Virus genome (UHGV): UHGV-0115176 | Length of the DNA stretch: 20,696 nt | Strand: one strand, 5' to 3' | Source of the DNA: a virus | Part shown: piece by piece, positions 2,854 to 15,618 of the stretch | How positions within the stretch are numbered: the stretch's first letter is position 1 | Layout of the letters: each line of letters starts with the position of its first letter | The notes under the pieces: model-generated | What the model was told of the DNA's origin: nothing | The model's input: the letters and a program-made list of their open reading frames with translations, nothing else | Databases searched by the model: none | Position numbers and translations under genes: made by a program

Positions 2854-3028
2854 TCAATCTGTCCTCGCGCTCTTTGCGCTTGTAGTACCAGTTGATGCCA
2901 AATGTGCCGACAGTACAAAGAATACCAATGATGACAGCCCAGTCATTCAGGGAGAGAATGCCACCCATCGCAGTCAGTCCTCCGAAGCTGTAACTGAACC
3001 ATTCTCTGATTTTGTCCATACGGTACAT
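2825..3028 (-). CDS. S: Class II holin (pinholin-like) with dual-start motif
   Basis: 67 aa with two predicted TM segments and a charged C-terminus; begins MYRMDKI (Met1 and Met4 separated by Arg), the holin/antiholin dual-start pattern; overlaps the endolysin start by 29 nt. Confidence 0.8.
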
Positions 3029-3997: not shown

Positions 3998-4115
3998 CGC
4001 TTTACCTTAGGGATAGAGCCTGTTCGCGTAGATATGACAGCCAAGAGCGGAGCGATGTTTCCACCACCATATCTCAGGCCCATATCACTAAGACTCTTGT
4101 TTTGATTGCACGCGA

Positions 4116-4144: not shown

Positions 4145-4184
4145 GTGATGGTTGCTGAATGCAAAAGCAGCAGCATATGTGAAT

Positions 4185-10682: not shown

Positions 10683-10903
10683 GCTGCACCTCCGAGATGC
10701 TTCATGTTTTTTCCGGAGCGAAAGGCTATAAGCGGCATACTGACGCGGTAATTACGGCCCAGCGGTTCACAAACCACCTTCTGACATTCACGGTCAACCA
10801 GGCTAACACGTAGAACATGCCCTGCAGGCGTGGTGTACCACTGACCCGGACGAGGACAACGGAAAGTATGATTGGTAAACCGTTTGAAAATATTCCGGAT
10901 CAT
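10679..10903 (-). CDS. Hypothetical small protein (74 aa) with three Cys (possible zinc-ribbon-like)
   Basis: ORF-track ORF; 4-nt overlaps with both neighbours (ends 10900/10903 and 10679/10682) imply a translationally coupled operon member. Confidence 0.55.
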   Translation of the reverse strand: MIRNIFKRFTNHTFRCPRPGQWYTTPAGHVLRVSLVDRECQKVVCEPLGRNYRVSMPLIAFRSGKNMKHLGGAA

Positions 10904-12060
10904 TTGCGCCCCCTTACCTCTGAAGGGTTCAGCGACAAATTTATGAGACTGGCCAGTAGCGCCGCGTCGTTGATGCGGTCATACAGACTTACAGCCAGCG
11001 GGGATTCGGCTTTTGCCAACATGGGATAAAGCTGCTGCAGCCAGACCTTGTGGATTACCGACAGGTGGGAGTAAAGCACGCTGGCGTTATCTGCGGCATC
11101 GCTCAGCGTGGATGGCTTTGAAAGCAGTTTTTCCATCTGGTTAAAGGCATTTATGTATGCCTCTTTGAACCGGGCAGCACGTTTACCCGTGAAACCCATA
11201 GCAAGAAACGCAAAACCGTCTCGTGTGATTTGATAGCAAGGGAGCTTGCGTGTACCACCGTTCGGTTGATTTACCGAAATCGATGTCTCCGCAAAATTGC
11301 GGGCACAAAACTCTGGGGAACAATCCAGAGTGCGGATCTTTTTCAGCACATCGTCGTGACGCTTGGAGAAGAAGTTGGCAACAGCCAAAGAAGTGGTAAC
11401 GGCCTGGCCGTTGTCAATGGTGATTTCAGGTTGAGTGAGGGCTGGGATCGTAGCCATGATGGCAGCCTCCGTTGACAGTGAAAAACTTCCACCACCGGAA
11501 ACGCCAATTTCACTGGTGGTGAACTGGACGGGGTTGGCGTAACCGGCGTCAACGGAGACCGGCGCACCTTTCGGTGCCCCCGCCCAGCCCACCATAATCT
11601 GGATGTGAGCAAATGCGGACGATAAAAAAGACGCTGGCGCGTCATACATCGCCGTTGACAATTTCAGGACGCCAATCCCGGCACCCGCTTTATAAGGTGC
11701 CTGAGCAGTGTAACGTCCCGGAATTGCAGAATCAATATGCTGGTGGTCCTTCACACTCAACAAAATCACGCCTGAATTTCCACAAAGGACTAAAGCACTC
11801 ATGCGGGTAGTCTTTGCGAAGATAGATAACGCGCTGTGTTTCTGGCTCCCAACGAATAACATGGACATAAAGCCCTCTTCCGTCACGAAACCAGCGGTTA
11901 AGTTCCTGCACAACTCGCCCCCCACAGTCAGGTAAAGTTCTCTGTGGTTACTTACAGCCAGGTGATTTGGTAATCTGCATTCATGCCGTAACAACAGGTG
12001 TTCAGCGACGCTGACCACCAGCTGTTGCGACAAACGGTTATTTGCCGTTAAACTATTCAT
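10900..12060 (-). CDS. Rha-family phage regulatory protein, long ORF with a ~200-codon N-terminal extension (canonical Rha start at 11457)
   Basis: The segment from the internal ATG at 11455-11457 (GGAGG SD 8 nt upstream) reads MATIPALTQPEITIDNGQAVTTSLAVANFFSKRHDDVLKKIRTLD...ITRDGFAFLAMGFTGKRAARFKEAYINAFN, a Rha-type N-terminus. The same frame stays open for 201 further codons upstream to an ATG at 12058-12060 that overlaps the preceding gene's stop. Confidence 0.55.
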   Translation of the reverse strand: MNSLTANNRLSQQLVVSVAEHLLLRHECRLPNHLAVSNHRELYLTVGGELCRNLTAGFVTEEGFMSMLFVGSQKHSALSIFAKTTRMSALVLCGNSGVILLSVKDHQHIDSAIPGRYTAQAPYKAGAGIGVLKLSTAMYDAPASFLSSAFAHIQIMVGWAGAPKGAPVSVDAGYANPVQFTTSEIGVSGGGSFSLSTEAAIMATIPALTQPEITIDNGQAVTTSLAVANFFSKRHDDVLKKIRTLDCSPEFCARNFAETSISVNQPNGGTRKLPCYQITRDGFAFLAMGFTGKRAARFKEAYINAFNQMEKLLSKPSTLSDAADNASVLYSHLSVIHKVWLQQLYPMLAKAESPLAVSLYDRINDAALLASLINLSLNPSEVRGRK

Positions 12061-12657: not shown

Positions 12658-12858
12658 TTAATCTTTCGGATAGATATCCGGTCTTAAGTCAGATTTCGTA
12701 ATTGCACCTGACGTGCATTGCTCAAGTTTTTTAGCCAGCACAAAACTGGCTTTTTTATAACCATTGAAAACCAGCCGTAAGTAGCCTGGTGTTGAGCCAA
12801 CTTTTCCGGCCAACTCGCCCTGCTGTTCTTTGGTTAAAGAGTCCCAATACGCTTTCAT
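12658..12858 (-). CDS. Cro/YdaS-like HTH repressor
   Basis: 66 aa from the ATG at 12856-12858 (MKAYWDSLTKEQQGELAGKVGSTPGYLRLVFNGYKKASFVLAKKLEQCTSGAITKSDLRPDIYPKD), with GGAGG SD 7 nt upstream; divergent from the cI-like gene. The longer ORF-track ORF to 13161 would run through the operator region and the cI start. Confidence 0.75.
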   Translation of the reverse strand: MKAYWDSLTKEQQGELAGKVGSTPGYLRLVFNGYKKASFVLAKKLEQCTSGAITKSDLRPDIYPKD

Positions 12859-12861
12859 ACA

Positions 12862-12884
12862 ATATGTACCTCCGATATACATAT
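12862..12884. promoter_or_regulatory. Candidate operator OR-a (ATATGTACC-N5-GATATACATAT dyad)
   Basis: Inverted arms ATATGTA (12862-12868) / TACATAT (12878-12884) overlapping the pR -10 and the cro SD; a further TACAT copy at 12885-12889. Confidence 0.5.
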
Positions 12885-12913
12885 TACATGATTGAGATGA
12901 ACCTTCAAGATAC

Positions 12914-12932
12914 TTGTACCCTATCGGTACAA
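12914..12932. promoter_or_regulatory. Candidate operator OR-b (TTGTACC-N5-GGTACAA perfect dyad)
   Basis: Perfect 7-bp inverted repeat around a 5-bp spacer, overlapping the candidate pRM -35 and lying just upstream of the pR -35. Confidence 0.45.
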
Positions 12933-12948
12933 AGGTTTTAATTTCGTT

Positions 12949-13623
12949 ATGAAAACAGTCCATGACATCCGGCGGTCTAACGCCAGAAAACTGAGAGATG
13001 GTGTTGGCGGGAATTCTTCCTTTGCCACCATGATTGATCGCGAGCCAACCCAGACCAGCAGGTTTATGGGAGATGGTGCTACTAAAAATATCGGTGACAG
13101 CATGGCACGGCACATCGAAAAATGTTTCGACCTGCCTGTCGGATGGCTTGATCAAGAACACCAGACAACAAACATCACAAAAAAACCTGATGTTTCAATT
13201 ACTAACAAACAAATAACGTTAGTCCCTGTCATATCATGGGTACAGGCCGGAGCATGGAAAGAAGTTGGCTATTCTGAGGTTGATTTGAGCACAGCAGAAA
13301 CTTATCCCTGCCCTGTACCCTGTGGCGAAATGACTTATATCTTGCGGGTGATTGGTGATTCAATGATTGATGAGTACCGCCCGGGAGACATGATTTTTGT
13401 AGATCCTGAAGTCCCTGCCTGCCACGGTGACGACGTTATTGCATTGATGCACGATACGGGCGAAACCACCTTTAAGCGGTTGATAGAAGATGGAACACAG
13501 CGTTACCTCAAAGCATTAAACCCAAACTGGCCTGAACCTTACATTAAGATCAACGGTAATTGCTCTATAATTGGTACAGTAATTTTCTCAGGAAAACCAA
13601 GAAGATACAAAATAAAGGCCTAA
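12949..13623 (+). CDS. CI-like prophage repressor (N-terminal HTH, C-terminal S24 LexA-type autopeptidase)
   Basis: 224 aa; HTH-like N-terminus (ARKLRDGVGGNSSFATMIDREPTQTSRFMGDGATKNIGDSMARHIEKCF); C-terminal S24 signature with Ser in VIGDSM and Lys in TTFKRL; divergent from cro. Confidence 0.85.
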   Translation: MKTVHDIRRSNARKLRDGVGGNSSFATMIDREPTQTSRFMGDGATKNIGDSMARHIEKCFDLPVGWLDQEHQTTNITKKPDVSITNKQITLVPVISWVQAGAWKEVGYSEVDLSTAETYPCPVPCGEMTYILRVIGDSMIDEYRPGDMIFVDPEVPACHGDDVIALMHDTGETTFKRLIEDGTQRYLKALNPNWPEPYIKINGNCSIIGTVIFSGKPRRYKIKA

Positions 13624-13634
13624 TCAATATTTAT

Positions 13635-13658
13635 AACCTGCTTCGGCAGGTTTTTTTA
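13635..13658 (+). terminator. Intrinsic terminator after the repressor gene
   Basis: AACCTGC-TTCG-GCAGGTT (7-bp stem, tetraloop) followed by T7 (13651-13657), 12 nt after the cI stop. Confidence 0.75.
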
Positions 13659-13661
13659 TAC

Positions 13662-13694
13662 TTGACAATGTACCCTTGAGATACATAATGTATC
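13662..13694 (+). promoter_or_regulatory. pL-like promoter (TTGACA-N16-CATAAT) with overlapping operator dyads
   Basis: Consensus -35 TTGACA (13662-13667) and -10 CATAAT (13684-13689); dyad ATGTA (13668-13672) / TACAT (13682-13686) and perfect palindrome GATACATAATGTATC (13680-13694); the 23-mer 13666-13688 matches OR-a at 16 of 23 positions. Confidence 0.6.
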
Positions 13695-14181
13695 TAAAAG
13701 AAACATGCCACAGGCAAGATTAAACAAAATTTGGTTGTAACACGGCGTATGGCACATGCGTCGTTAGCGGTCTGGGGACGTTAAAGGGGACAATCCACTC
13801 CTTGCTCGGGCAAACAAACCAGGTAGCCGGAATGTGCAAGTCAATGATGATGCTGATAAGACGCCTAACCAGCGTGGCGATTCGGTTTGACGCCTGGGAA
13901 GAGACCAGGACGCAACGATGAGAGCATTGACGAGCAAGGCATAAGTGCTGGTTCAATTCCAGACAGTCCCATTCAGATGGGAGGGTTGGGCAGGGAAAAG
14001 GTCCGTTCGATTCGGACACCGGCAATGCTCTCAGCGTTGTGGTGAATGCGCAGGCTGATGCGCGAAAGACATTGCAGCTATTGCGGAAAAGAGCTGTTCG
14101 GCGGGGCAATCAAACGCCCGTGAGAGTCTGAAATAACCGCAAGCCGGAGATCAGCACCGGCACCACAACAGCCACTGCTTT

Positions 14182-14228
14182 GGCGGTACCAGTTTGTACA
14201 CTTGCTTCCGGCTGGTACCGCTCTTTTT
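14182..14228 (+). terminator. Strong intrinsic terminator inside the pL leader, ~140 nt before the first early-left gene
   Basis: Stem GGCGGTACCAG (14182-14192) / CTGGTACCGCT (14212-14222), 10-11 bp and GC-rich, followed by CTTTTT (14223-14228); the 19-nt loop contains TTGTACA. Confidence 0.6.
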
Positions 14229-14365
14229 ACAAAACAGAGAAGAGCATCACCGGACGACGGGCTCATAACCCAATCCATCCGGGCGGCTGTCACCGCAGGT
14301 GTTCTTCTCTGTTTTGTGGAGAAACCAACCGACCTTGCAGGGTCGGTATGATGAGGAGCAGCAAA

Positions 14366-14728
14366 ATGGCTAGCGTACGCAGTACTGATGTGCAGGTATT
14401 TATCGTAGAACTGGACGGCGGCGTATTTGAAACCAAACTCGGCGCAGTTCTCAGTGAAGTCGCTTCCGGTGTGATGAACACGAAAAACAAAGGTAAAGTC
14501 TCGGTCAATCTGGACATCGAACCGTTTGATGAGAACCGTGTGAAAATCAAACACAAACTCTCATATGTTCGCCCGACTAACCGCGGGAAAATTTCCGAAG
14601 AAGACACCACCGAAACACCGATGTATGTCAATCGCGGTGGTCGCCTGACTATTCTGCAGGAAGACCAGGGACAATTACTGACTCTTGCCGGTGAACCTGA
14701 CGGAAAACTACGCGCAGCAGGTCATTAA
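14366..14728 (+). CDS. yfdP: YfdP-like early protein (120 aa), first gene of the leftward early operon
   Basis: ATG at 14366 with GAGGAG SD 7 nt upstream (MASVRSTDVQVFIVELDGGVFETKLGAV...); the upstream in-frame portion of ORF 14180..14728 is Cys/Arg/Pro-rich and looks noncoding. Identity inferred mainly from synteny with the clearer yfdQ/yfdR/yfdS matches. Confidence 0.6.
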   Translation: MASVRSTDVQVFIVELDGGVFETKLGAVLSEVASGVMNTKNKGKVSVNLDIEPFDENRVKIKHKLSYVRPTNRGKISEEDTTETPMYVNRGGRLTILQEDQGQLLTLAGEPDGKLRAAGH

Positions 14729-14793
14729 TATCGTTCTTAATTAACTGATTATTTATCTCATCACTGAATATCTTAATATAGTGAGGACTTATT

Positions 14794-15618
14794 ATGTCTC
14801 AGAACTTAGACGCAACCGCAATTAATCAAATCCATGCCCTTATTTCTGCTCAGGGTGTTAATGAAATTATCAGTAAGATTGGTGCCGATGCTGTGGCATT
14901 GCCTGAGAATTTCCGCATTCATGATCTGGAAAAATTTAATTTAAATCGCTTCCGTTTCCGTGGTGCGCTTTCCACTGCCAGCATCGATGACTTTACCCGT
15001 TATTCTAAAGATCTTGCAGATGAAGGCACCCGCTGCTTTATCGATGCCGATAATATGCGAGCCATCAGTGTGCTTAACCTGGGTACTATTGATGAACCAG
15101 GTCACGCAGATAACACCGCCACTCTCAAACTGAAAAAGACAGCACCGTTCTCTGCCCTGCTGTCTGTTAATGGCGAGCGTAACTCCCAGAAGTCACTGGC
15201 AGAATGGATTGAAGACTGGGCCGACTATCTTGTGGGCTTTGATGCTAATGGTGACGCTATTAAGGCAACAAAAGCGGCTGCGGCAGTCCGTAAAATCACG
15301 ATTGAAGCAAACCAGACCGCTGATTTTGAAGATAATGACTTCAGCGGCAAACGCTCTTTGATGGAGTCTGTCGAAGCGAAAACCAAAGACATTATGCCAG
15401 TAGCATTTGAGTTTAAATGCGTTCCGTTTGAAGGCCTGAAAGAACGTCCGTTTAAATTACGCCTCAGCATTATCACTGGTGATCGCCCTGTACTGGTTCT
15501 GCGCATTATTCAGCTGGAAGCAGTGCAGGAAGAAATGGCTAACGAATTTCGTGATCTGCTTGTTGAAAAATTCAAAGACAGCAAAGTAGAAACCTTTATT
15601 GGTACTTTCACCGCCTGA
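14794..15618 (+). CDS. yfdQ: YfdQ-like protein (DUF2303 family)
   Basis: 274 aa, [48 protein letters not shown]...; matches my recollection of E. coli K-12 CPS-53 YfdQ; GAGG SD 7 nt before the ATG. Confidence 0.75.

Follow-up and report, generated by a model that had tools for sequence, protein, structure and literature searches.

A predicted five-site operator set of one dyad type at the early promoters of an SfV-type lambdoid prophage

The operators of phage lambda are TATCACCGC-type 17-mers. A differently controlled repressor, Rep of phage SPC32H, is reportedly inactivated by an antirepressor and not by self-cleavage; it is the nearest solved relative (5d50) of the N-terminal domain of the cI protein discussed below. 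In the immunity region, the DNA analysed here is 95-99% identical to the phages cdtI, Ayreon, 2H10, SfV and SfIV and to Stx2c-converting phages. SfII, SfV and SfIV are reported to be without homologues of N, cII and cIII in the paper on SfIV, which also mentions in general terms the presence of an operator/promoter sequence, cI and Cro (PMC3851460). More specifically, positions 26377-26445 of the SfV record (U82619.2) are annotated as a "putative operator region", which extends exactly from the first base of the site called Oa below to the last base of the site called Ob. With SfV, the locus shares an OR that is identical base for base and cI/cro DNA that is ~96% identical; it differs in the leader downstream of OL, and the SfV record carries no annotation of OL or pL. 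No binding studies of these operators were found in the literature searched.

The stretch of DNA analysed, in its full length of 20,696 bp referred to as the window, very probably contains the immunity region of a lambdoid E. coli prophage of the SfV/cdtI/Stx2c type, in which a LexA-like self-cleaving cI and Cro are predicted to bind one dyad family. Five sites, three at OR and two at OL, would constitute an ordinary lambda-like OR/OL switch. The operator set is thus a refined description of ordinary lambdoid operators which had already been putatively annotated, and the understanding of how such switches work is unchanged by it. For an immunity type that is very common, it provides an operator consensus open to testing, (A/T)TGTACC-N5-GGTACA(A/T); the map of five sites applies to prophages with genes for Shiga toxin 2c, cytolethal distending toxin and Shigella serotype conversion, and can help to predict superinfection immunity and induction and to build orthogonal repressor-operator pairs.

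Layout of the immunity region

The cro (minus strand) and cI (plus strand) genes are divergent with 90 bp between them, as annotated in SfV and cdtI, and are arranged with their promoters and a terminator as follows.

cro-like gene: 12658-12858, minus strand, ORF of 66 aa for a small HTH protein, annotated as cro in SfV and cdtI
cI-like repressor gene: 12949-13623, plus strand, ORF of 224 aa
Predicted pR: 12881-12908, minus strand, -35 TTGAAG at 12908-12903, 16-bp spacer, -10 TAATAT at 12886-12881, start at ~12874
Predicted pRM: 12914-12949, plus strand, -35 TTGTAC at 12914-12919, 17-bp spacer, -10 TTTAAT at 12937-12942, predicted start at 12949
Intrinsic terminator after cI: 13635-13659, plus strand, 13635-13652 followed by a T run, annotated in both SfV and Ayreon
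pL: 13662-13689, plus strand, TTGACA(13662)-N16-CATAAT(13689), 11 of 12 consensus positions, predicted start at ~13696

The region displays the layout of lambda read from the opposite strand, and pR and pL are therefore fitting names. The Ayreon record has pL annotated as a promoter, and the -35 element of pL is invariant in the 25 loci compared below. The predicted promoters pR and pRM, both weak matches to the consensus, were read by eye and fall below the threshold of the consensus scan; the -35 TTG and the -10 element of pR are kept in relatives, and pRM has its -10 element 6 nt before the A of the cI ATG. Because relatives keep an NNNAAT -10 element mostly 6 nt (rarely more) before the cI ATG and a Shine-Dalgarno sequence upstream of cI was found neither in the window nor in the relatives, the cI mRNA is predicted to be probably leaderless, as it is for lambda pRM.

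Besides the divergent cro and cI genes, the likeness to lambda includes three dyad operators between these genes which overlap the predicted pR and pRM, further operator copies on pL, located downstream of cI and directed as cI, and the self-cleaving S24 C-terminal domain of cI. Om, the middle one of the OR sites, has its centre at -43 relative to the predicted start of pRM; in lambda, cI bound to OR2 activates pRM from this position. On the other hand, the operator sequence, TGTACC-N5-GGTACA, is unrelated to that of lambda, OL has two recognisable sites instead of the three in lambda and lies ~0.8 kb from OR, the sites in OR are spaced at 33 and 17 bp compared to 24 and 23 bp in lambda, and two of them have 2 bp in common. 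The site closest to the consensus is positioned on the predicted pRM, opposite to the affinity order of lambda cI.

Operator unit and sites

A preliminary description of this DNA had pointed out two related 23-mers, one at each early promoter, and three copies of the pentamer ATGTA/TACAT at each of these promoters, and these are present as described. The 23-mers at 12862-12884 (ATATGTACCTCCGATATACATAT) and 13666-13688 (CAATGTACCCTTGAGATACATAA) are identical at 16/23 positions, and the pentamers start at 12864, 12878 and 12885 in OR and at 13668, 13682 and 13688 in OL. The whole window of 20,696 bp has 33 copies of the pentamer; three or more within 27 bp are found solely at 12864-12889 and 13668-13692, and in first-order Markov simulations such clusters arose with a mean of 0.04 and reached two or more in 0.2% of the runs (P = 0.002). 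When the OR 23-mer was slid along the window on either strand, just two places other than its own reached 16/23, namely 13666 and 12895, the latter a further site in the same cro-cI intergenic region. The promoter placement had been recognized correctly as well, with the 13666 23-mer located over the spacer and -10 element of the strong plus-strand promoter pL and the 12862 23-mer touching the likely -10 element of pR and spanning the Shine-Dalgarno sequence of cro, which reads CCTCC at 12869-12873 and thus GGAGG on the minus strand. The repeated near-palindromes at both promoters are real and not a product of chance.

The conserved unit is a different one from the 23-bp operator of ATGTA/TACAT half-sites that had been proposed. 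All dyads, including every one named previously, possess the same TGTACC/GGTACA core with the same N5 spacing and are of one type, (A/T)TGTACC-N5-GGTACA(A/T), with a length of 17-19 bp. The half-site centres are 11 bp apart, and therefore the two reading heads of a dimer would be placed in successive major grooves. The predicted sites, which have no strand assigned, are the following.

Oa: 12864-12882, ATGTACC-TCCGA-TATACAT, between cro and cI
Om: 12897-12915, ATGAACC-TTCAA-GATACTT, between cro and cI
Ob: 12914-12932, TTGTACC-CTATC-GGTACAA, perfect consensus dyad with a 7-bp inverted repeat
Oc: 13668-13686, ATGTACC-CTTGA-GATACAT, on the promoter after cI
Od: 13688-13706, ATGTATC-TAAAA-GAAACAT, on the promoter after cI, abutting Oc

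When the window is searched with nothing but the perfect palindrome TGTACC-N5-GGTACA as a seed, Oc with 1 mismatch and Oa with 2 come out as the best matches besides the seed itself, and dinucleotide shuffles of the window give 0.5 matches at up to 2 mismatches to this strict palindrome. With the degenerate pattern TGTAYC-N5-GRTACA, to which Oc has 0 mismatches and Oa 1, all four sites in the window with at most 1 mismatch are at OR or OL. Weak matches are present at 3011 and 4001. Om is one of the two best window matches (16/23) to the OR 23-mer; judged by the window motif score alone, Om and Od, which deviate from the strict palindrome at 3 positions, do not rise above background, and their designation as operators rests on position and conservation, the latter of which could in part be explained by the overlapping promoter elements, the TTG of the pR -35 and the pL -10.

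The sites are distributed over pL and the predicted pR and pRM. Oa covers the predicted pR start, which at ~12874 places this site at ~-8 to +11 of pR, together with the cro Shine-Dalgarno sequence; Om overlaps the -35 element of pR, and Ob covers the -35 element and spacer of the predicted pRM. On pL, Oc is located in the spacer and -10 element (~-28 to -10) and Od over the start (~-8 to +11); Oc and Od (13668-13686 / 13688-13706) form an inverted pair of 19-nt segments with a single base between them. From centre to centre the sites are separated by 33 bp for Oa-Om, 17 bp for Om-Ob, which share 2 bp, and 20 bp for Oc-Od. A layout resembling OR1/OR2/OR3 had been anticipated and the three-site OR agrees with it; Om had been missed and Od had not been seen as an operator.

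Conservation, exchange of immunity and the proposed switch

One genome per GTDB species was scanned with a cI alignment, which gave 24 loci with a full-length cI of 61-100% identity; three further matches, restricted to the N-terminal part with 32-37% identity, were left out. Two of three identical E. coli loci were set aside, and the comparison was widened by two more distant phages, Hafnia yong2 and Edwardsiella EPP-1. Represented among the 24 loci are Escherichia, Pseudocitrobacter, Klebsiella, Leclercia, Atlantibacter, Phytobacter, Enterobacter, Pantoea, Trabulsiella, Kluyvera, Limnobaculum, Rahnella, Edwardsiella, Serratia, Symbiopectobacterium, Proteus and others. The best 80 cI relatives in IMG/VR are all 100% identical and thus provide no comparative signal.

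The 25 OR sequences compared are all distinct, as are the 25 OL sequences. In these loci the arms TGTACC and GGTACA are near-invariant, with GTACC/GGTAC invariant, and the 5-bp centres of Ob and Oc are almost without information. In Oa, CCTCC is retained, which on the opposite strand is the Shine-Dalgarno sequence of cro, and Om is kept as ATGAACC-NNCAA-GGTACTT, in which CAA is the TTG of the pR -35. Despite the position of Om in the pR spacer, its ATGAACC and G(G/A)TAC are near-invariant in the 25 loci. The 24 relatives (84.9 kb) contain 101 matches when up to 2 mismatches are allowed, and 100 of these are in OR or OL. Oa, Ob and Oc occur in 24/24 relatives and the offsets from the cI ATG are fixed, with Oa at ~-84 to -88, Om at -51 and Ob at ~-34. 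At the same threshold of 2 mismatches, Om is found in 11/24 relatives and Od, at +20 from Oc, in 14/24; the right arm of Od is weak and is missing or displaced in some relatives.

These comparisons bear on the possibility that each promoter combines the 23-bp ATGTA/TACAT operator with a distinct second type of dyad, which would imply two specificities, e.g. one of cI versus one of Cro. The 16/23 identity of the 23-mers and the significant clustering of the pentamers are in line with such an arrangement, as is the dyad of Oa, which can be extended to 14-nt arms with 86% complementarity (12855-12868 / 12878-12891). It is nevertheless improbable, as one core and one N5 spacing are present in all dyads and the relatives conserve GTACC/GGTAC, whereas the outer A/T and the third pentamer vary. 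At OR this third pentamer, the TACAT that starts at 12885, is replaced by TACAC in many relatives and forms part of the -10 region of pR. The dyad at 12914-12932, previously regarded as a second type, is indeed perfect, but as all dyads share core and spacing it represents, as Ob, the consensus of the one operator. GATACATAATGTATC, at 13680-13694, is equally present and equally no dyad type of its own, since it splits into the right arm of Oc and the abutting left arm of Od; the two arms belong to separate 19-bp sites, and each has its partner within its own site.

Alternatively, the dyads could function as nucleic-acid hairpins, i.e. terminators, attenuators or mRNA structure over the cro ribosome-binding site, and not as protein sites. 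A scan for terminator-like structures does flag Ob, a 7-bp stem followed by a T-rich run, and conserved arms with a free loop are expected of hairpins, too. Pairing alone would, however, permit compensatory changes in the arms, which are invariant in sequence, and the arm sequence is repeated at five sites, three of which are poor hairpins with 4-6 of 7 positions self-complementary. As the sites moreover coincide with promoter elements and the motif switches with the cI/cro allele, hairpins deserve very little credence as an explanation of the dyads as a family.

The switch of the motif with the allele is apparent from phage 1720a-02, which is like the window in genome architecture, flanking genes and leader and unlike it in that another immunity specificity occupies the same slot. 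Its CII-like gene is 96% identical to the one left of cro in the window and its leader is 98.7% identical from window position 13723 onward; its cI and Cro are unrelated to those of the window, its OR and OL carry a common different dyad, TTGCG..CGCAA, and no TGTACC-type sites were found in either. Flanks being alike and both the cI/Cro proteins and the dyad being different, the motif travels with cI and cro and not with neighbouring regulators, which is the behaviour expected of immunity-specific operators. The earlier proposal that the repeats reflect the binding specificity of cI and/or Cro gains support from this co-variation.

The same observation makes it most improbable that another regulator, the CII-like CP76 protein, an Ash/Rha antirepressor or host LexA, binds the sites. 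Such genes do adjoin and LexA controls many prophages, but the CII-like protein is 96% identical in 1720a-02 and yet the operators there differ, cI and cro are the only genes with which the motif co-segregates, and an SOS box (TACTGT-N8-ACAGTA) with at most 2 mismatches is absent from the whole window, which argues against LexA. A chance likeness of AT-rich promoter regions, although OR and OL are both AT-rich intergenic DNA, is rejected by the shuffles, the simulations and 24 independent loci and is barely conceivable.

The candidate binding proteins are cI and Cro. Residues 93-212 of cI match Pfam Peptidase_S24 (E = 1.5e-26) and the C-terminal domain is homologous to that of lambda cI (1f39, E = 2e-9), whereby in the alignment Ala100-Gly101 falls on the cleavage site of lambda cI and Ser138 and Lys176 on its catalytic residues. 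In the N-terminal domain of cI, Pfam HTH models give no match at E <= 0.01; weak similarity was found with SPC32H Rep (E = 7e-4, residues 1-75) and a phage CI (7nkv, E = 0.05). From SPC32H Rep, cI differs by other residues in the putative recognition helix and by the possession of the S24 domain. Cro shows weak Pfam matches to YdaS_toxin/HTH_3 and a weak match to the solved phage Cro proteins 8co2/8c7k. The putative recognition helix of cI, PTQxSR, is invariant across relatives with neighbouring residues varying, and that of Cro, GYLRL(V/I)F, is invariant among the relatives with a correctly extracted Cro, 3/25 mis-started extractions being outside this count. The invariant putative recognition helices of both proteins would match the invariant half-sites.

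With cI and Cro sharing one dyad family, in a lysogen cI on Oa and Om would shut pR and cI on Oc and Od would shut pL, and occupation of Ob by Cro or by excess cI would turn pRM off. RecA-stimulated cleavage of cI at Ala100-Gly101 would then relieve repression. Which of the two proteins takes which site first, cooperativity or looping between the sites and the exact transcription starts are equally predictions drawn from the site map. As the perfect operator, and by consensus the strongest site, is positioned on pRM, the order of site occupancy may differ from that of lambda; the 2-bp overlap of Om and Ob would fit lambda-style pairwise cooperativity poorly.

A structured RNA downstream of pL

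Downstream of the operators, the first ~300 nt of the predicted pL transcript (13743 to ~14047) appear to form an unannotated multi-helix RNA with strong covariation. A convincing plus-strand ORF does not follow pL until 14365. The stretch 13743-13911 matches the profile of a conserved element whose core, exact over 19 nt (GGTAGCCGGAATGTGCAAG), is found in at least 120 IMG/VR contigs; the whole element is present in 1605/5426 complete E. coli genomes (~30%), including P1-like plasmids, and also in many unrelated phages (P1-like, epsilon15-like, SfV-like). Among the records listed, 0/30 have an annotated feature under the element. In 33 distinct sequences a five-helix structure has 98% of its cells paired, compared to only 25-43% in controls with the partner slid by 1-3 columns, and compensatory change occurs in 11/26 pairs, a value reached by 0/500 shuffles.

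The element often adjoins same-strand tRNA genes in other phages, and in the window a terminator-like hairpin (14183-14229) is located between it and the early-left genes. Covariance models of Rfam 15 give nothing credible at E <= 5 in 13600-14800, and none matches at E <= 0.1 over the homologous element in the P1-like, SJ46, SPC32H and phiV10 loci. A homologue of putL/putR, the HK022 put antiterminator RNA, was considered and discarded; nhmmer finds no match of the element profile (E <= 10) in the HK022 immunity region, and blastn with 7-nt words returns nothing meaningful.

As the RNA is covarying, widespread, unannotated and without an Rfam match, as the phage group is reported to be without N and as a terminator-like hairpin precedes the early-left genes, we tentatively consider that this phage RNA belongs to a new class and is produced only once the cI operators are vacant. 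It might be an RNA-based processive antiterminator, similar to HK022 put in function and unrelated in sequence, or a tRNA-linked regulatory or anti-defence RNA; this reading is possible, with the odds rather against it. The pL-driven structured RNA is the part of this locus that could lead somewhere new.

ARAGORN detects no tRNA in the window. The stretch 14023-14065, a candidate for the 3' half of a tRNA, was rejected as such; it supplies the 3' strand of another long stem (13913-13929 with 14023-14039), which shows rich covariation among variants and encloses a variable insert.

Right-hand edge of the immunity module

In Escherichia phage 1720a-02, which shares the DNA flanking the immunity module but encodes a different cI and cro, identity to the window begins at 13723, 16 bp past Od, the distal operator of OL on the promoter pL. 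SfV-type phages, with the same cI and cro as the window, depart from it downstream of OL. The edge of the immunity module is a clean case of lambdoid mosaicism, the exchanged module including OL.

Boundary and hairpin beyond OL
About 13722-13723: right-hand recombination boundary, from sequence identity to 1720a-02
14183-14229 (+): terminator-like hairpin GCGGTACCAG-N19-CTGGTACCGC, then TCTTTTTA, found by eye

Because its loop is longer than 8 nt, the hairpin escaped the terminator scan. It separates the structured leader described below from the first solid plus-strand ORF (14365-14727). Its position before the early-left genes poses the problem of how transcripts from pL get to them, N having been reported absent from this phage group (PMC3851460).

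Structured RNA and other elements behind OL

13743-14047 (+): structured RNA of ~300 nt, from covariation and conservation

The 5' edge of this RNA lies ~50 nt past the predicted start of pL; a core domain (13743-13911) is followed by a long closing stem, in which 13913-13929 pairs with 14023-14039. Covariation in the core is strong, with compensatory change in 11 of the 26 pairs, a value reached by none of 500 shuffles. Among complete E. coli genomes, about 30% carry the element, and it also occurs in P1-like, epsilon15-like and SfV-like phages; SfV itself is without it. [quoted passage not shown]

Elements after OL in related phages
L001 (SfV) 4149-4172, also in a relative's locus, L010, after OL: ORF of 7 codons
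L004 (Hafnia phage yong2) 2472-2545: tRNA-Gly(ccc) gene, ARAGORN call

SfV and many relatives have an alternative leader (AACAGGCAGGACGCCCACGAAGTAGCCGCC...) after OL, absent from the window, which contains the 7-codon ORF. Its product is MKSRMIR in SfV versus MNDRMIR in a Klebsiella locus, with synonymous changes in the Arg codons, which hints at a translated leader peptide. In yong2, the position filled by the structured leader in the window is occupied by the tRNA gene, and in several other phages tRNA-Arg(tct) or tRNA-Met(cat) directly adjoins the structured element.

Putative antirepressor ORF and operator dyad

11512-11599 (-): C4 antisense RNA, Rfam gathering-score match, 81 bits
11624-11700 (-): isrK, Rfam gathering-score match, 62 bits

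Both matches fall within a long minus-strand ORF (10900-12060), annotated with 386 aa, whose product has Ash and Rha antirepressor domains, which suggests a P1 immI-like antirepressor module under RNA control downstream of cro; for the same reason the start of the annotated ORF may have been placed too far upstream.

The dyad of Oa, an operator between cro and cI, can be extended in the window to arms of 14 nt, TCATACAATATGTA and TACATATTACATGA (12855-12891, 86% complementary), which run as far as the start codon of cro at one end and the -10 element of the cro promoter pR at the other; relatives keep this extension only partly. Outside the immunity region, the operator pattern TGTAYC-N5-GRTACA with 2 mismatches matches twice, at 3011-3027 and 4001-4017, probably by chance.
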